From Schmidtea polychroa (Eukaryota): 64,000 nucleotides of DNA. Of this stretch, positions 5,701-25,574 are shown piece by piece; within the stretch, counting starts at the first letter, position 1, and each line of letters opens with the position of its first letter. The translations under genes were made by a program, and so were the position numbers. The stretch spans positions 620,001 through 684,000 of the forward strand of contig CM097885.1 of assembly GCA_044892525.1 (NCBI GenBank), read 5' to 3'. Below the pieces are notes generated by a model, which worked only from the letters and a program-made list of their open reading frames with translations, was not told the origin of the DNA and searched no databases.

Positions 5701-6264
5701 AATTTTTAAATTAAAGTAAATAGTGGTTCAAAATTTGAAATTAAAGTTAATTAAGGGCTCAACTAAGTAAATTAGGGTTCAAATTTTTAAATTAAAGTAA
5801 ATATTGGTTCTAAAAAATTAAAATAAAGTAAATCAAGGTCCAAAATTTTAAATTAAATTAATGAATGGGCACAAATAACTAAATTAAGGTTCTAAAAAAT
5901 TAAAAATAAGTTAATTAAGGTCCAAATTTTAAAATTAAGTAATCAATGGTAAAAAATTAAAGTTAAATAAGTAAATTAAAGTAAGATTTTTAAATTTATT
6001 AACAATTGAAATTTTTTAATGAAAGTTTTTATGAAATAATTTTTTATGAATAATTTTTAATAGAAATTTTAATGAAATATTTTTCAATGGTAATTTTTAA
6101 TGGAAATGTTTATGAAATAATAATAAAAATAATAATAATAATAAAAATAATAAGTAGATGGATTGGGCACCGCTGGCACAGGGCACCGCTAGCACAGTAC
6201 CCCCCCCCGGTCGTCATATTTTTCAAAAATATGCTAAGTCTAAAAGTACATTTTTTAAACAAAG

Positions 6265-7010
6265 ACATATGACTCATCAAGGTCATTGAAACAAAGACCA
6301 TGACTAATAGTATGACTCATCAAATTTCTCAAGGTCATTTAAACAAAGACCGTGACTCATCCTATGACTCATCAAGGTCATTTTCAAGGTCGAATGACTC
6401 ATAATATGACTCATCAATGCCAAAAAATTTTTCAAGGTCATTTAAACACAGTCCATGACCCATCAAGGTCATTTTCAAGGTCGTATCACTCATAATATGA
6501 CTCATCAATGCCAAAACTTTTTTTCAAGGTCATTTAAACAAAGTCCATGACTCATCAAAGTCATTTCCAAGGTCATATGACTCATACTATGACTCATGTG
6601 CCCATGAAATTTTTTCCCAAGGTCATATGACTCATAGTATGTCTCACCAAAATTTTCAAGGTCATTTAAACAAAGCCCATGACTCATAATATGACTCATC
6701 AAGGTCAATTTCAAGGCCATATGACTCATACTATGACTCGTAAGACCTTGAAAAAAAATTTTCAAGGTCACCTGCCTCATCCTATGCATCATCAAGGTCA
6801 ATTTCGAGGTCATATGAGTCATACTATGACTCATCGAAATTTTTTCAAGGTCATATGACTCATCCGACGACTCATCAAAATTTTCAAGGTCATTTTCAAG
6901 GTCATCTGAGTCATGCCTTACCTCATCAAGGTCATTTTCAAGGTCGCATGACTCATCCAAGGTCATTCCCAATGTCATATGAGTCATCGCGATGAGTCAT
7001 CAAGGTCATA
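6265..7010. promoter_or_regulatory. Subterminal degenerate repeat array of ATGACTCAT (AP-1/bZIP-type) and TCAAGGTCA (NR5A/ERR-type) motifs
   Basis: Dozens of interleaved tgactcat and caaggtca copies; mirrored at ~24615-25290; function inferred. Confidence 0.6.
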
Positions 7011-7157
7011 TTATTATTTTTATAAATATTATTATTTTTATTATTATTTTTAAAAATATTATTATTTTATTTTTAATTTTTTCAAAGTTCTCGCCAACGA
7101 AAATTAATAATCGATAGCTCATTTTAAAGCTCAATCCAAGACCTTTCGAATGAGCTA

Positions 7158-7328
7158 TATATTATTATTATTATTATTATTATTATTATTATTATTATTA
7201 TTATTATTATTATTATTATTATTATTATTATTATTATTATTATTATTATTATTATTATTATTATTATTATTATTATTATTATTATTATTATTATTATTAT
7301 TATTATTATTATTAATATTATTATTATT
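7158..7328. repeat. (ATT)n microsatellite
   Basis: Direct reading; shorter copy in the right arm at ~24417-24508. Confidence 0.95.
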
Positions 7329-7448
7329 AATCTATATACTCCGAGTCTATATACTCCTAGTCTATCCGATAAAATATTTTGTCCCCCTATGGGTAATGCT
7401 CACAAGGGTACTGGTCACGCTCAACAAATCAACAAAACATACATTTAT

Positions 7449-7946
7449 TTAAACAATAAAATAATGTAAAATTACCAAAGGTAAACTAAATATTGATGTA
7501 CTATTCGCAGCAATATTGTTTGAAATTGGTAACGTAGAATTGATTTTCAGAGATTCTATTGATCCTTTGATTGTTTGAATTTCTCTTAATAATAATTCAA
7601 TCTTTTTTAACAAATAATCATGCTTCTTATCAATTATTTTCATATTCATTTTATTTTCAACAATAGAGTTATTGAAAACCTTAATATGATCAATCAATTC
7701 AAATTTTATATTTTGTATATATTCAAATGATAGTTCATAACTGTTTTCTAAATTCTCCAATCTTTGAGATATTCTTTTTCCTGGATGCTTTGACCATTTT
7801 GGTTTGTCCAGAATATATAAAATATCCATCAACTTGGCTGTATTCGGACAAACACATATTGATTAATTAAAAGACTCCACTGTTATTGTTGTATTGTGTG
7901 AGCACACACTCGTTATAATAATTAGCAATATGAATATAGTTTTCAT
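7449..7946 (-). pseudogene. Signal-peptide, coiled-coil, C-terminal hydrophobic (GPI/TM-like) protein with one in-frame stop
   Basis: Upstream in-frame ATG gives MKTIFILLIIITSVCSHNTT..SFN*SICVCP..; C-terminus NSTSIFSLPLVILHYFIV. Confidence 0.6.
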
Positions 7947-8051
7947 GGTGTATCAAATCAAAACCTTTCTTTTACATTTATAGTCTATCAACCAATCAAA
8001 ATCATCCGGTATTAGTATAAATAAAACATCATATTTTAAATTATTGTAAAA

Positions 8052-22566: not shown

Positions 22567-22692
22567 TGTTATATTTAATAAATGTATTAGTCAGATTTGT
22601 TTTTCTCTTTATTAATTGCAACATAAATGCAAATGACATGCAAATTTAACAAAGAAAATCTATAAACAAAATTATAATATAGTTTTAAAGTG

Positions 22693-23090
22693 ATGAAAAT
22701 GACTGCAGAAAAAGGTTAACATGATTAATTAATTACCGAATTATTTATTATTTAGAATTTTTAATCAACTTTTTGTGGGAAAAGTTAGCAGAAATATCTG
22801 GTGTGAAAATTGAGGACATATTATCTATTACAAATGCCTTAAATATCGGCTGGTTAGTTGAGAGTCAAGATACAGGATTTGATGTTGAGGAAGAAACTCA
22901 AGAAACCGATACTCAAGAAATTGATGAGGAAATCTATGAACCTATAGATGAACCTATAGAGGAACCTATAGAGGAACCTATAGAGGAACCTAAAGATGAA
23001 TCTAAAGATAATATTACGAATGATTGTATTGATCATGTCGTTGAAAATATAATGAAATGTGGAGATGACGACTGCGAATGTGTTAATTAA
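22693..23090 (+). CDS. Mirror copy of acidic protein (exons 22693-22714, 22756-23090)
   Basis: 41-nt GT-AG intron, in frame. Confidence 0.65.
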
Positions 23091-23173
23091 TAAATCTTAG
23101 TTAATTAGTGTTTGTAAATTTATTTAAAATGTTATTTAAAAATTTATTTAAAAATCAAACAAAAATAACTATA

Positions 23174-23694
23174 TTAATTTTTATTTAAAAATCTGGTTAA
23201 AATATACAAAATAGCAACACCTGTTGCAAGTTTTACATAGTTTTTAAATTTTCTTTTCTGATCATCAATTTCCTTCGCATTTCTGGCGAGTTGATTGAGT
23301 ACTCCCCATCCGCCATTGGCTTCAATCCATGGTTGAAACTTTGACTTGATTATCTAGAAAATAAATATTAATAAAATATAAATTATAAAAGTATTACTTC
23401 TTGAGACCACTGATAATAGTGCTCTGAGTCCCATAGACTTCTTTGGATTATTATTTTCATATAAGCGAACCCTACTAGTATTCGGGTCCACTTCATCTGA
23501 TCGTCGCATAGACAGTTAAAAATTCTATTAAAATAGAATTTTTTGGTTTCGAGACAATCAGAATTGATCACATCTTCATAATCAATGTGATTACCTTCTA
23601 TAATCTTTTCGGTCCGATCGACCAGGAAACATAGGCTTTCCATAATATTCCTGTTGACGAGTTCTCTTAAAAGATTTTCCATAAATTGAGACAT
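23174..23694 (-). CDS. Mirror copy of viral Bcl-2 (intron 23354-23397)
   Basis: Exon 1 translation identical; exon 2 mirrored. Confidence 0.88.
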
Positions 23695-23799
23695 TTTTAC
23701 AATAATTTAAAATATGATGTTTTATTTATACTAATACCGGATGATTTTGATTGGTTGATAGACTATAAATGTAAAAGAAAGGTTTTGATTTGATACACC

Positions 23800-24297
23800 A
23801 TGAAAACTATATTCATATTGCTAATTATTATAACGAGTGTGTGCTCACACAATACAACAATAACAGTGGAGTCTTTTAATTAATCAATATGTGTTTGTCC
23901 GAATACAGCCAAGTTGATGGATATTTTATATATTCTGGACAAACCAAAATGGTCAAAGCATCCAGGAAAAAGAATATCTCAAAGATTGGAGAATTTAGAA
24001 AACAGTTATGAACTATCATTTGAATATATACAAAATATAAAATTTGAATTGATTGATCATATTAAGGTTTTCAATAACTCTATTGTTGAAAATAAAATGA
24101 ATATGAAAATAATTGATAAGAAGCATGATTATTTGTTAAAAAAGATTGAATTATTATTAAGAAAAATTCAAACAATCAAAGGATCAATAGAATCTCTGAA
24201 AATCAATTCTACGTTACCAATTTCAAACAATATTGCTGCGAATAGTACATCAATATTTAGTTTACCTTTGGTAATTTTACATTATTTTATTGTTTAA
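23800..24297 (+). pseudogene. Mirror copy of signal-peptide/GPI-like protein, same stop at codon 28
   Basis: ATG 23800; TAA 23881-23883. Confidence 0.6.
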
Positions 24298-25574
24298 ATA
24301 AATGTATGTTTTGTTGATTTGTTGAGCGTGACCAGTACCCTTGTGAGCATTACCCATAGGGGGACAAAATATTTTGTCGGATAGACTAGGAGTATATAGA
24401 CTCAGAGTATATAGATTAATAATAATAATAATAATAATAATAATAATAATAATAATAATAATAATAATAATAATAATAATAATAATAATATTAATAATAA
24501 TAATAATATATAGCTCATTCGAATTTTCGTTGGCGGGAACTTTGAACAAATTAAAAATAAAATAATATTTTTAAAAATAATAATAAAAATAATAATATTT
24601 TTTAAAAATAATAATATGACCTTGATGACTCATCGCGATGACTCATATGGCCTTGGGAATGACCTTGGAAATTTTGATGAGTCATCGGATGAGTCATATG
24701 ACCTCGAAAAATTCGATGAGTCATAGTATGACTCATATGGCCTTGAAAATGACCTTGATGAGCCATGGGATGAGTCAGGTGACCTTAAGGAAATTTTTCC
24801 AAGGACATATGACTCATACTATGACTCATGTGACCTTGAAATTGTCCTTGAAGAGTCATAGGATGAGTCAGATGCCCTTGAAAATTTTTTTCACGGTCAT
24901 ACGAGTCATAGTATGAGTCATATGACCTTGAAAATGACCTTGATGAGTCACATTATGAGTCATGGTCTTTGTTTAAATGATCTTAAAAATTTTGATGACT
25001 CAGACTATGAGTCATATGGCCTTGGGAAAAAATTTTCATGGGCACATGAGTCATAGTATGAGTCATATGACCTTGAAAATGACCTTGATGAGCCATAGAC
25101 TTTGTTTAAACGACCTTAAAAAATTTTTTTGACCTTGATGAGTCATATTATGAGTCATACGCCCTTGAAAATGGCCTTGATGAGTCATAGGATGAGTCAT
25201 GGTCTTTGTTTAAATGCCCTTGAGAAATTTGATGAGTCATACTATGAGTCATGGTCTTTGTTTCAATGACCTTGATGAGTCATATGTCTTTGTTTAAAAA
25301 ATGTACTTTTAAACTTAGCATATTTTTGAAAAATATGACGACCGGGGCGGGGGGTACTGTGCTAACGGTGCCCTGTGCCAGCGGCGCCCAATCCATCTAT
25401 TATAATAATAATAATATATCAACCAAATACTATACAACACATAAAAAATTAACTAAACACATAAAAATAACTAGACACATAACAAAACATATAAACATTA
25501 ACTAGACACATAAAAAACATAAAAATTTACCAAACAAATAACAAATGTATATATATAAACTTTTATTTAATAAA

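Follow-up and report, generated by a model that had tools for sequence, protein, structure and literature searches.

The question raised by this locus is whether the DNA of Schmidtea polychroa holds an intact virus equipped with its own transcription factor, apoptosis blocker and single-strand-binding protein. A preliminary description had read positions 6153..25401 of the window (the whole stretch of 64,000 nucleotides analysed) as such a Polinton-like virus. Our analysis revealed a Maverick/Polinton-type element at 6153-25401, and the ends of other copies align at 6150-6153 and 25399-25408. The element is real and its ends are confirmed, but the window copy is damaged and is not an intact virus. 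Very probably, the locus is a single provirus, defective and rearranged, from an adintovirus-like Maverick/Polinton family that is very abundant and was amplified recently. The abundance of the family was assessed by the capsid gene, for which all 98 copies scored, out of 5098 first-look candidates, were 98-100% identical. Six other genomic copies (c1-c6) were used for comparison, and the right side of the element is kept in three of them (c3, c4 and c5). The features of the window copy, with the evidence for each, are as follows.

6153..7500, no strand: left terminal inverted repeat, about 1.35 kb (start aligned with other copies)
7452..7838, minus strand: accessory gene 1, 129 aa, coiled-coil-like, with hydrophobic C-terminal tail (ORF)
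8052..8572, plus strand: probable Bcl-2-like gene with hydrophobic C-terminal tail (Pfam, atlas and PDB matches)
8659..9053, minus strand: accessory gene 3, acidic, about 118 aa (sequence reading)
9183..9590, minus strand: accessory gene 4, 136-aa OB-fold protein, previously called SSB-like (structural matches)
9874..10285, minus strand: accessory gene 5, about 121 aa, fast-evolving (sequence reading)
10364..10798, minus strand: compact TBP-like gene, 145 aa, single exon, intact copy (Pfam TBP, 56.5 bits against a cut-off of 22.9)
10898..11523, plus strand: A32/FtsK-type packaging ATPase (Pfam Pox_A32, 31.2 bits against a cut-off of 22.8)
11803..12075, plus strand: small conserved protein with hydrophobic C-terminus (between ATPase and integrase in 9 of 80 metagenome loci)
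12137..13261, plus strand: rve integrase with C-terminal chromodomain (Pfam rve E 1.4e-5 and Chromo E 3.5e-4, both below cut-off)
13318..14217, plus strand: penton-type minor capsid protein (position and conservation only)
14267..14635, plus strand: small conserved virion-module protein (7 of 80 loci keep it directly ahead of the capsid gene)
14632..15855, plus strand: major capsid protein, open 427-aa ORF (atlas 0.97-0.98 to clusters with DJR-like domain PF21738)
15883..16266, plus strand: adenain/Ulp1-type cysteine protease (weak Pfam Peptidase_C5 and C48, E about 0.008)
16734..17410, plus strand: predicted multi-exon acidic protein with about four GT-AG introns and a duplicated exon (sequence reading)
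19033..20876, plus strand: putative pPolB gene, 5' 45%, with exonuclease I motif (truncated at the junction; ORF 19033-20913)
20877..24508, no strand: inverted duplicate of 7238-10867 with all six accessory genes (arms 98-100% complementary)
24253..25401, no strand: right terminal inverted repeat (right ends of c3, c4 and c5 align here)

The normal element is about 19-20 kb long, with terminal inverted repeats and six small genes in a left block, followed in order by the ATPase, a small protein, the integrase, the penton, a second small protein, the capsid, the protease, the acidic multi-exon gene, the polymerase and a RING-finger gene. An inverted repeat of about 1.15-1.35 kb was found at each end of the normal element, the right repeat being 1.15-1.2 kb in c3, c4 and c5. 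In the window, tandem units of 92 bp lie in the left repeat, which also has a (TAT)n microsatellite at 7160-7329 and 19 exact occurrences of ATGACTCAT and 15 of TCAAGGTCA; the right repeat contains 20 and nine of these, respectively, and its terminal sequence mirrors the left end.

Analysis of the core genes revealed an A32-type ATPase, an rve/chromo integrase, an open capsid ORF and fragments of the protease and pPolB. A full morphogenesis set with pPolB, as claimed previously, holds for the family but not for the window copy, where the ATPase is frameshifted, the protease carries a stop and pPolB is truncated. The ATPase frameshift lies near 11266-11272; all six other copies are one base longer there and without stops, and the gene is one continuous ORF in metagenomic relatives. 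As the shift falls in a short single-base run, it could be a consensus error. The in-frame TAG of the protease at 16042-16044 is a sense codon in all six other copies, and relatives of this protein match Peptidase_C5 with E values down to 1.1e-7; the gene is predicted to begin with a 5-nt first exon and a 36-nt intron at 15888-15923. The integrase probably contains a GT-AG intron at 12526-12636 carrying a (TAT)n microsatellite. The intron varies in length among copies by multiples of three; relatives are continuous at the same point. The capsid gene is stop-free in 96 of the 98 scored genomic copies, and PDB and Pfam searches with its protein gave no match. In 7 of 80 loci the penton-type gene is conserved, with the integrase gene on one side and the capsid gene on the other; its protein gave no Pfam match and no ATG was found near its conserved N-terminus. 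Pfam searches likewise gave no match for the protein at 11803..12075 or for the pieces of the acidic multi-exon protein, the gene of which has a 146-bp tandem duplication at 16907-17199. The polymerase ORF in c4 comprises 1354 aa. The family's own polymerase gave no direct match in Pfam or PDB, and its assignment draws on motifs recognised by eye and on relative L094, which is 31% identical over 1197 aa and matches PF03175 at 77.5 bits.

The accessory block occurs twice in the window, a duplication absent from the preliminary description: 7238-10867 is repeated in inverted orientation at 20872-24508 with 98-100% identity. Three of the six other copies (c3, c4 and c5) remain collinear with the window as far as 20876; beyond this point they have about 3.5 kb of further polymerase sequence and a RING ORF (zf-C3HC4_3, E 1.5e-9) that is missing from the window. 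The junction at 20876/20877 has 1-2 nt of microhomology and was found at four of 40 scored places, all on C1 and on the plus strand, with 99-100% identity. These four copies have a common right flank up to about 26512-26558, with flanks partly diverged (92-93%), and all fall inside 0.75 Mb of a sub-terminal region rich in repeats. In the most probable course of events, one illegitimate join at 20876/20877, together with an exchange inside the terminal repeat, placed an inverted copy of the left block where the 3' half of the polymerase and the RING gene had been. Since the left block was thereby inverted onto the right end, the terminal repeats lengthened to about 4.7 kb, and the rearranged form then multiplied, flank included, through duplication of host DNA. 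Either a free linear genome or the chromosome may have been the site of the event.

It is scarcely credible that inverted repeats of 4.7 kb are instead the natural design of an intact autonomous genome, with accessory genes diploid as in poxviruses. Such a design would fit the near identity of the two arms and the length of the window element (19,249 bp), which is near that of full-architecture copies (about 19.2-19.9 kb), but it is contradicted by the single accessory block, full-length polymerase region and RING gene of c3, c4 and c5, by the window polymerase ORF, which stops about 14 codons into the repeat and lacks the polymerase domain entirely, and by the restriction of the junction to few places with flanking DNA in common. 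A genome assembly artefact (a long read that is chimeric or folded back, or terminal repeats wrongly joined) is also quite improbable. The inner arms are indeed 100% identical over 2585 and 457 nt, and all junction copies fall inside the one repeat-rich region; the outer arms, however, are only 88-95% alike (the left pairing with 25025-25352), the right-arm TBP-like copy differs from the left arm by a 2-nt deletion and a substitution, and the junction recurs with partly diverged flanks. A fourfold junction, arm differences and diverged outer repeats are not expected from one fold-back read.

Having identified a rearranged provirus, we turn to the accessory block, for which six ORFs were found at 7449-10825. 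The preliminary description had taken absence of the block from other copies as counting against its reading; the block was found in all six examined, with all six genes open in most. Estimates of dN/dS, where measurable, were 0.06-0.24 for the TBP-like gene, the OB-fold gene and Bcl-2 exon 1, indicating that the block is under purifying selection. The unity of the six genes had been overstated, as only two of them are found again in metagenomic relatives: the TBP-like gene is present in 80 of 80 loci (by construction), the OB-fold gene in 21 and the Bcl-2-like gene and the other three in none.

The TBP-like gene is the best-defined member, and its earlier identification was confirmed by the Pfam score and by structural comparison. 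All 35 matches in the PDB sequence search were TBP or TBP-fusion chains (best E 7.6e-10). The predicted model (pLDDT 95) is compact and asymmetric, and all 44 Foldseek matches at E <= 0.001 were TBP, aligned over both repeats, with TMq of 0.65-0.76 among the chains listed and 20-25% identity to solved TBPs. The ORF is open in all 150 genomic copies scored, out of 4168 candidates, and 108 relatives were found in the protein collection. Of the 23 metagenome loci in which the flank exceeds 2.5 kb, 20 have Maverick core genes next to this gene. Sequence and model comparisons thus give solid grounds for a genuine TBP homologue in the family, and the genomic context indicates that the gene belongs to the virus.

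Alignment of 66 TBP-like sequences revealed F38, F97 and F113 in all 66, F18 in 56, and E93, P94 and E95 in 65-66. In the model the first repeat consists of strands only, without the H1 and H2 helices. The protein would retain the DNA-facing sheet, its phenylalanines (three invariant, one mostly conserved) and the EPELFP loop, with no helices atop its first half. In cellular TBP such residues kink the TATA box and touch TFIIB, the EPELFP loop being a TFIIB contact. The viral protein probably positions host TFIIB and RNA polymerase II at the TATA boxes of early viral genes, and probably evades regulators that bind the upper surface of TBP. Four genes have a TATA-like box 32-41 nt ahead of the start codon, although such strings are expected by chance at about 28% G+C. 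A search of the genome for TFIIB-type domains gave 25 PF00382 matches; the window holds none of these, and no high-copy family is among them.

The small OB-fold protein encoded in the same block was described previously as SSB-like, in agreement with its best structural matches, which are viral ssDNA-binding proteins. Enc34 SSB headed the Foldseek matches, and two aligners gave T7 gp2.5, Enc34 SSB, DUF2815 and ASFV CP312R over 101-128 residues. These matches are middling, and those in BFVD are unnamed giant-virus proteins, several per virus, which is odd for a single-copy SSB. In protein-primed replication, as established for phi29 and adenovirus, displaced single strands need coating, and the OB-fold protein probably serves this purpose.

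We consider it somewhat unlikely that neither protein has the role proposed here, the TBP-like protein being an architectural protein that bends the DNA of an AT-rich genome for replication or packaging, or a decoy soaking up host TBP partners, and the OB-fold protein a structural or adaptor protein rather than an SSB. The loss of both helices from the first half of the TBP-like protein, the lack of a detectable TFIIB in the lineage, the pairing with a gene for an OB fold, as is typical of proteins that bind nucleic acids, and the middling OB-fold matches all agree with this alternative. A role in transcription is favoured by the invariance of the very residues that in cellular TBP kink the TATA box and touch TFIIB, and by the fact that a Maverick lacks an RNA polymerase and must use that of the host.

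The Bcl-2-like gene is predicted to consist of exon 1 (8052-8348), a 44-nt GT-AG intron (8349-8392) and exon 2 (8393-8572), and from the spacing of the exons a gap of 44 nt is implied for c1 and c6 as well. Exon 1 matches positions 12-67 of the Pfam Bcl-2 profile (E 0.0028) and exon 2 positions 86-100 (E 0.34); because these are consecutive parts of the profile, they were counted in favour of a Bcl-2-like protein. The atlas score is 0.93, with Bcl-2 clusters accounting for 18 of 30 matches and a neighbour cluster that mixes Adeno_E1B_19K and Bcl-2; the best PDB match is Bfl-1/A1 (E 0.11). The Bcl-2 gene claimed previously is thus probable from exon matches and atlas score, although all Pfam scores are below cut-off (18.6 and 11.9 bits against 31.4). 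Estimates of dN/dS for the gene were 0.06-0.31. It was found in none of the 80 metagenomic loci, and no Bcl-2 match occurred among 140 neighbouring ORFs; the family probably carries the gene as a lineage-specific one. Together with the RING protein, its product probably delays cell death.

The remaining accessory genes are less distinctive. Accessory gene 1 gave sub-threshold Pfam matches only, is open in all six other copies and has dN/dS of 0.23-0.42. Accessory gene 3 (predicted exon 1 at 9032-9053, 41-nt GT-AG intron at 8991-9031, exon 2 at 8659-8990) differs in in-frame length between copies, without stops. Accessory gene 5 (predicted exon 1 at 10234-10285, 49-nt GT-AG intron at 10185-10233, exon 2 at 9874-10184) shows only 72-74% nucleotide identity, over part of its length, in c3, c4 and c6, has dN/dS of 0.06-0.21 and could not be aligned with the ORFs after the TBP-like gene in relatives. 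Neither gene 3 nor gene 5 gave a Pfam match. By sequence reading, GT-AG introns are predictable in six genes of the element; at least five spliced genes had been proposed, and this number stands as a prediction of splicing. No intron-skipping joints were found among the contig matches listed.

Predicted introns, which are like those of host genes, the lack of relatives of the Bcl-2-like gene and accessory genes 1, 3 and 5 in the metagenomic loci and of Bcl-2 matches in neighbouring ORFs, and the finding that Bcl-2 exon 1 has no relative in the database other than its own unspliced form might suggest that the accessory genes are recent host-gene captures or lineage-only passengers with no viral role. 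This is unlikely, given that the TBP-like and OB-fold genes are widely conserved next to core genes and that all six genes are open in most copies. Furthermore, dN/dS for Bcl-2 exon 1 is 0.06-0.14 between sub-lineages differing at 11-24% of bases, a low value which argues for selection during spread and not for decay after insertion.

Comparison with known systems places the TBP-like protein beside cellular TBP (PF00352) and the TBP-like proteins of giant viruses, with which it has in common an above-cut-off match, a saddle fold over both repeats, paired phenylalanines and the EPELFP loop. Unlike cellular TBP, it has 145 aa instead of about 180 and a first repeat without H1 and H2, and it is 20-25% identical to solved TBPs. 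Giant-virus TBPs mostly serve a viral polymerase, whereas a Maverick has no polymerase of RNA type for such a protein to serve. The product of accessory gene 4 resembles viral ssDNA-binding proteins of the T7 gp2.5 type in its best structural matches. Viral homologues of Bcl-2, for example adenovirus E1B-19K and ASFV A179L, are similarly small, with BH1- and BH2-like stretches and a hydrophobic tail; the gene studied here differs in scoring below family thresholds, in its predicted intron and in being found only in the lineage of this genome. Arm replacement or terminal-repeat extension occurs in linear replicons (adenovirus, poxvirus and Streptomyces linear plasmids), where, as here, one end is exchanged for an inverted copy of the other, repeats lengthen and unique genes are lost; here, however, the product is known only as integrated DNA multiplied by host-level duplication.

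The closest comparison is with adintoviruses and animal Mavericks-Polintons. Bcl2, IAP, SSDBP and TBP genes are reported in such viruses in the consulted parts of the adintovirus paper (Starrett et al. 2021, PMC8502044), SSDBP as a label in the extracted text of a supplementary map and TBP in a figure legend that concerns viruses of non-animal datasets. The combination of TBP, Bcl-2 and SSB, put forward earlier as possibly undescribed, is on these portions of the paper less novel than supposed: the family has a TBP-like, a probable Bcl-2-like and an OB-fold gene, but these kinds of gene are noted there singly in related viruses. Adintoviruses have in common with the element a protein-primed PolB, rve integrase, A32/FtsK ATPase, penton, capsid and adenain, ends formed by inverted repeats and anti-apoptotic accessory genes (Bcl2, IAP). 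A parvovirus-type PLA2 is treated there as an adintovirus accessory gene (PMC8502044); a PLA2 domain was found in 12 of 140 ORFs of relatives of the window element and none was seen in the element itself. Relative to what those parts of PMC8502044 describe, the present family is set apart by a compact 145-aa TBP-like family adjoining core genes (80 loci) with an OB-fold gene alongside (21 of 80).

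The source assembly comprises 781 Mb in a few very large contigs, and the G+C content of the window is about 22-39%; the element is treated here as a provirus in an animal-sized genome. Alignment to six other genomic copies of the same family (c1 to c6), taken from around capsid-gene matches in the genome, placed the ends of the element at 6150-6153 and 25399-25408 and bore out the ends proposed in the preliminary description. The left and right termini are mirror images and terminal inverted repeats are present; a target-site duplication is not callable because both flanks consist of AT-rich simple sequence. 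A six-frame ORF map together with Pfam scans revealed three gene groups in the element (accessory ORFs, plus-strand row and 652-aa ORF), listed here with individual features.

Features of the element (positions in the window; strand; feature; basis)
6269-7008 and 24617-25283; dense ATGACTCAT/TCAAGGTCA arrays; exact motif counts
7449-10825; six small accessory ORFs; ORF map
8052-8348 and 8393-8572; plus; Bcl-2-like gene, two predicted exons
9183-9590; minus; OB-fold gene; structure model
10364-10798; minus; TBP-like gene; Pfam, PDB sequence matches and structure model
Row of ATPase, small ORF, rve/chromo integrase, ORFs of 299, 122 and 427 aa and adenain-like pieces; plus; ORF map and Pfam
652-aa ORF with a visible exonuclease-I-like motif; ORF map

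The Maverick family to which the element belongs is large and young, with thousands of first-look candidates for its genes. The capsid protein was 98-100% identical at all 98 scored genomic places, 96 of them without a stop (5098 first-look candidates), and the TBP-like protein was 98-100% identical and open at all 150 scored places (4168 candidates); both copy counts are lower bounds. Among the comparison copies, c2 lacks the whole polymerase region and ends early in a repeat, the polymerase 5' match is absent from c1, and c6 is a member of a more divergent sub-lineage. Being young and abundant, the family is good material for studying a virus-like element that is maybe still active in an animal-sized genome.

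The element had at first been presented as an intron-rich Polinton-like virus with a full morphogenesis set. This picture overlooked a rearrangement in which the accessory block, the six small genes left of the ATPase, is duplicated and the 3' part of the polymerase is missing together with a RING gene. An inverted-repeat search paired the following arms.

Inverted arms of the element (left arm; right arm; length; identity)
7238-9822; 21924-24508; 2585 nt; 100%
9844-10300; 21438-21894; 457 nt; 100%
10293-10555; 21182-21444; 263 nt; 98%
10550-10867; 20872-21189; 318 nt; 99%
6200-6432; 25120-25352 (outer arms); 233 nt; 95%
6446-6618; 25025-25197 (outer arms); 173 nt; 88%

The pairing of the arms indicates that the entire accessory block is present twice, in opposite orientations, and that the true terminal repeat is older than the inner duplication. 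From the left end of the element up to exactly 20876, the three copies that keep the right side (c3, c4 and c5) are collinear with the window; they then contain about 3.5 kb absent from the window, followed by a right repeat of 1.15-1.2 kb that matches window positions 24253-25400. The extra 3.5 kb holds the remaining polymerase and a RING-finger ORF of 182 aa. Of these three full-architecture copies, one has an unbroken polymerase ORF (1354 aa) and the other two have it broken into three pieces each, and the RING ORF (zf-C3HC4_3, E 1.5e-9) is open in two copies and split in the third. The RING gene, lost from the window copy, lies between the polymerase and the right repeat in c5 (L024:8176-8721) and is also found in c3. 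We take it to resemble the RING found at the C-terminus of IAP-type proteins, but the RING ORF of the full-architecture copies showed no BIR domain.

The join at 20876/20877 displays only 1-2 nt of microhomology, and the other end of the exchange lies inside the pre-existing terminal repeat. An inverted duplication could arise as an artefact of a fold-back read, and the arms themselves oppose a simple event of this kind, as the right-hand copy of the TBP-like gene differs from the left by a 2-nt deletion and one substitution. A 401-nt junction probe matched in full at four of 40 scored places (3078 first-look candidates), all four on contig C1, on the plus strand and within about 0.75 Mb; the remaining 36 matched the left-arm half only. 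The three other junction copies share the right flank of the window up to about 26512-26558 at 92-93% identity, and hence host-level duplication, not independent integration, multiplied the rearranged form along with its flank in a sub-terminal region rich in repeats. The rearranged copy is a record of terminal-repeat extension in a Maverick-class element.

Outside the element, the window consists of a sub-terminal block rich in repeats, which is found again nearby on C1. It includes a second, related Maverick polymerase in fragments (25740-26525, 28586-29521, 30352-31005, 33066-34120, 47484-48452, 58570-60138 and 61751-63697), some internally deleted and some arranged as inverted pairs, interleaved with repeated serine/asparagine-rich host-like ORFs. 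Long ORFs at 55612-58354 resemble a non-LTR retrotransposon by eye. Contigs of a second organism covered the ATPase-integrase part, mostly at 90-95% likeness and at high depth, which points to closely related Mavericks in a related organism.

Analysis of the core genes revealed an A32-type ATPase, one of the Maverick core genes (Pfam Pox_A32, 31.2 bits against a cut-off of 22.8). Its frame is shifted near 11266-11272 in the window copy only; all six other copies are one base longer and without stops, and the ATPase is one continuous ORF in metagenomic relatives. The frameshift falls at a short single-base run and may be a consensus error. The protease exon of the window matched Peptidase_C5 and C48 at E of about 0.008, below cut-off, and its relatives matched PF00770 with 32.2 bits (cut-off 21.3); motifs with His, Asp, Gln and Cys can be made out by eye, and an in-frame TAG at 16042-16044 of the window copy is a sense codon in all six other copies. 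The integrase ORF, scanned with its microsatellite intron read through, scored 25.7 bits for rve (cut-off 32.6) and 20.9 for Chromo (cut-off 25.1), and it is strongly conserved in relatives, with E values down to 1e-137. The capsid gave atlas scores of 0.97-0.98 to clusters with the DJR-like domain PF21738 and no PDB match in a profile search. The penton is a putative one, assigned by position. No Pfam match was found for the penton, the capsid, the small conserved proteins and accessory genes 3 and 5.

The family polymerase matched nothing directly in Pfam or PDB, the search of the full polymerase against PDB included. The 1354-aa ORF of c4 is 31% identical over 1197 aa to the polymerase of the metagenomic relative L094, which itself matched PF03175 with 77.5 bits (cut-off 25.8). 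Judged from this sequence relationship, the family has the polymerase expected of an adintovirus-like Maverick/Polinton, of which the window copy keeps only about the first 45%. A zinc-finger insert is located between the exonuclease motifs of the polymerase in c4 (L021:2628-6689) and in the relatives L035 and L094, with a weak Endonuclease VII match (PF02945, E 5.5e-5 to 3.4e-4, just under cut-off) in all three polymerases scanned. Overall, the preliminary description was borne out in part: the element is present, but the window copy is rearranged and carries a frameshift and a stop. Its interpretation fits the family in kind and does not hold for the window copy.

GT-AG introns were drawn in six genes where they restored continuous, homologous or ATG-initiated frames. 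Predicted introns measure 44 nt in the Bcl-2-like gene, 41 nt in accessory gene 3, 49 nt in accessory gene 5 and 111 nt, with a (TAT)n tract, in the integrase; a 36-nt intron after a 5-nt first exon is tentative for the protease, and about four introns are predicted at 16734-17410 in an acidic gene. The length of the integrase (TAT)n tract varies in threes among the copies, and relatives are continuous across the intron site. The penton ORF, without an ATG near its conserved N-terminus, may also be spliced. The acidic gene contains a duplicated exon in a 146-bp tandem unit, each encoding an acidic stretch followed by a short hydrophobic run, a combination that presumably resembles a SUMO-interaction motif. 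Contigs of four runs over 7440-12520 placed none of the 15 joints listed (106 more occur) at predicted introns and are uninformative on splicing either way.

Among the accessory genes, the TBP-like gene gave the clearest matches. In Pfam, one repeat of its product scored 56.5 bits for TBP (PF00352; cut-off 22.9, E 2.6e-15), and in PDB every one of the 35 sequence matches at E <= 1 was a TBP or TBP-fusion chain (best E 7.6e-10). A collection of 5.8 billion proteins yielded 108 relatives at E <= 0.001 from 112 candidates; their identity is 37-97%, most have 144-165 aa, and PF00352 is a precomputed assignment for every one of them. A structure model built from a 66-sequence alignment reached pLDDT 95, and all 44 Foldseek PDB matches at E <= 0.001 are TBP; among the matches listed, 164-177 columns were aligned and both repeats covered, with TMq 0.65-0.76. 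In the model the second half forms a complete TBP repeat and the first half an incomplete one, with four strands and no long helices. Phenylalanines F38, F97 and F113 are present in all 66 sequences and F18 in 56, and the EPE of an EPELFP loop is conserved in 65-66 of the 66. We take the phenylalanines to be the TATA-kinking residues and the loop to be the TFIIB-contact stirrup of TBP, the equivalence being drawn from the HMMER alignment for the second repeat and from pattern only for the first.

No relative of the TBP-like protein was found in IMG/VR viral contigs, which gave 45 pattern matches. JGI metagenome contigs contained 179 relatives, from which 80 loci, most of them short, were kept and searched by tblastn with the proteins of the element.

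Genes found beside the TBP-like gene (number of the 80 loci)
ATPase; 27
OB-fold gene; 21
Integrase; 18
Capsid; 12
Small post-ATPase ORF; 9
Polymerase; 8
Penton; 7
Small pre-capsid ORF; 7
RING; 1
Bcl-2-like exons and accessory genes 1, 3 and 5; 0

Where a locus extends more than 2.5 kb beyond the TBP-like gene on one side or both, a core gene was present in 20 of 23 cases. Across the loci, capsid proteins are 26-58% identical to that of the window, and the TBP-like gene is therefore old within a broad clade. A further scan covered 140 neighbour ORFs of at least 90 aa, out of 194 found in 28 loci of at least 3.4 kb, and identified parvovirus-type PLA2 (12), C2H2 zinc fingers (seven), KilA-N (four), adenain (three) and one each of RING, E2 ubiquitin-conjugating enzyme, dual-specificity phosphatase and LRR; Bcl-2 never appeared among the 140.

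A TFIIB partner was looked for as well. The PF00382 scan found 25 places in the genome, none in the window and no high-copy family. A hidden TFIIB beside the TBP-like gene was considered and rejected, as accessory gene 5 could not be aligned with the ORFs that come after this gene in relatives and shares no common family with the ORFs adjoining it there. The lineage therefore has a TBP-like gene without a detectable TFIIB, partnered by the OB-fold gene. Elsewhere in the genome, 13 uninterrupted ORFs of 301-310 aa with a TFIIB repeat (PF00382, 37.9-43.7 bits) form two clusters, at 38.2-39.1 Mb of contig C3 and 23.8-24.2 Mb of C1, and may represent a multi-copy TFIIB-like gene family or another mobile element.

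Analysis of the non-coding DNA revealed that both terminal repeats consist of tandem units of about 92 bp. Exact copies of ATGACTCAT number 19-20 per terminal repeat, so that 39 of the 40 in the window fall in the two repeats against 0.73 expected, and exact copies of TCAAGGTCA number 9-15 per repeat (24 of 27, against 0.46 expected). We assume ATGACTCAT to be an AP-1/GCN4-type palindrome and TCAAGGTCA an extended nuclear-receptor half-site; the arrays may be enhancers or origin elements. TATA-like boxes occur 32-41 nt upstream of the start codons of the Bcl-2-like, OB-fold, TBP-like and protease genes, in DNA so AT-rich that such strings are expected by chance. A window-wide enrichment of the octamer ATTTGCAT was rejected (13 matches against eight expected, with 9 of 100 shuffles reaching 13). 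Eight of the 13 matches are pairs in the accessory block and its copy, regularly placed between accessory genes with the members 11 nt apart (9101-9119 and 9683-9701; copies at 22045-22063 and 22627-22645), and CAACCAATCA strings, CCAAT-box-like, lie near these pairs.

Mavericks are without an RNA polymerase, which raises the question of how their genes are turned on in the nucleus. A joint reading, which we put forward as tentative, is that the TBP-like and OB-fold genes are an old, conserved early-gene pair of a large adintovirus-like Maverick clade, with the TBP-like protein as a putative stripped-down promoter factor and the terminal repeats as putative enhancers. The TBP-like protein would kink TATA boxes and dock host TFIIB, having shed the upper-surface helices through which host regulators would control TBP, and a polymerase-less nuclear virus could thereby commandeer RNA polymerase II; the terminal repeats, each with about 20 AP-1-type and 9-15 nuclear-receptor-type putative sites, would serve as enhancers. 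The preservation of an intact TBP relative, in at least 150 copies within the genome and in dozens of distant relatives, suggests a straightforward answer that can be tested by ordinary biochemistry.

The Bcl-2-like exons were scanned separately against Pfam Bcl-2 (PF00452; cut-off 31.4 bits). Exon 1 matched profile positions 12-67 (E 0.0028, 18.6 bits) and exon 2 positions 86-100 (E 0.34, 11.9 bits). The best PDB matches are Bfl-1/A1 (E 0.11-0.28), exon 1 scored 0.93 with Bcl-2 clusters in the atlas, with 18 of 30 matches in that set, and a C-terminal hydrophobic tail can be read from the sequence. In the collection of 5.8 billion proteins, exon 1 found no relative other than the unspliced form of itself. 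Exon spacing implies the same 44-nt gap in c1 and c6, where exon 1 is only 76-89% identical, and this common gap fits a real intron. The Bcl-2 gene named in the preliminary description is thus a probable one, on the consecutive profile positions and the atlas score, though both exons lie below the Pfam cut-off. Its acquisition is specific to the lineage.

To gauge selection on the accessory genes, the window was compared with the two more divergent copies, c1 and c6, and also with c3 for genes that differed enough.

dN/dS of genes of the element
Capsid; 0.04-0.09
Bcl-2-like exon 1; 0.06-0.22
Accessory gene 5; 0.06-0.21
OB-fold gene; 0.09-0.14
TBP-like gene; 0.12-0.24
Accessory gene 1; 0.23-0.42
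Accessory gene 3; 0.33-1.0

Along the element, synonymous divergence varies greatly (window against c6, 2.4 for Bcl-2-like exon 1 and 0.08 for the capsid); sub-lineages therefore exchange modules.

The OB-fold gene gave no PDB sequence match as a single sequence, six chance-level PDB matches as a profile (E >= 0.56) and no Pfam match among 17 members. A model from 17 sequences reached pLDDT 90.8. Its best Foldseek PDB rows were the phage Enc34 SSB (E 0.04-0.2), with no row at E <= 0.001, and 19 matches at E <= 0.001 were found in BFVD, each an unnamed protein of a giant virus, with several from the same virus. Among 1.84 billion representatives a profile search found 101 relatives, and no Pfam domain above cut-off occurred in the 44 of these that were scanned. 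SSBs of the gp2.5 type have an acidic C-terminal tail that contacts the polymerase. Unlike T7 gp2.5-type SSBs, the OB-fold protein of the window and most of 16 aligned relatives have a C-terminus that is not acidic, and the gene lacks sequence similarity to known SSB families in PDB and Pfam. The SSB-like label given to it earlier therefore has consistent but middling structural support, and neither a sequence match nor an acidic tail accompanies it.

In the portions of Starrett et al. 2021 (PMC8502044) that concern these genes, adintovirus homologues of Bcl2 and IAP are described as observed, and its supplementary maps carry the labels Bcl2, IAP and SSDBP, with a TBP label in the legend of a figure on viruses from non-animal datasets; the corresponding portions of the preprint (10.1101/697771) have the same content. 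Among the titles and abstracts listed in full-text literature searches, none beyond the adintovirus paper and its preprint deals with a TBP gene in Polintons/Mavericks. The novelty first suggested for the gene combination shrinks accordingly, since its gene kinds are reported in those portions of PMC8502044, but three points remain. Compared with the adintovirus-type viruses, in which these kinds of accessory genes were already noted, the present result refines the picture and does not overturn it: it adds a TBP-like family of compact, asymmetric proteins, encoded in a conserved position next to the core genes across a broad Maverick clade, the pairing of the TBP-like gene with an OB-fold gene, and lineage-specific Bcl-2-like and RING genes.
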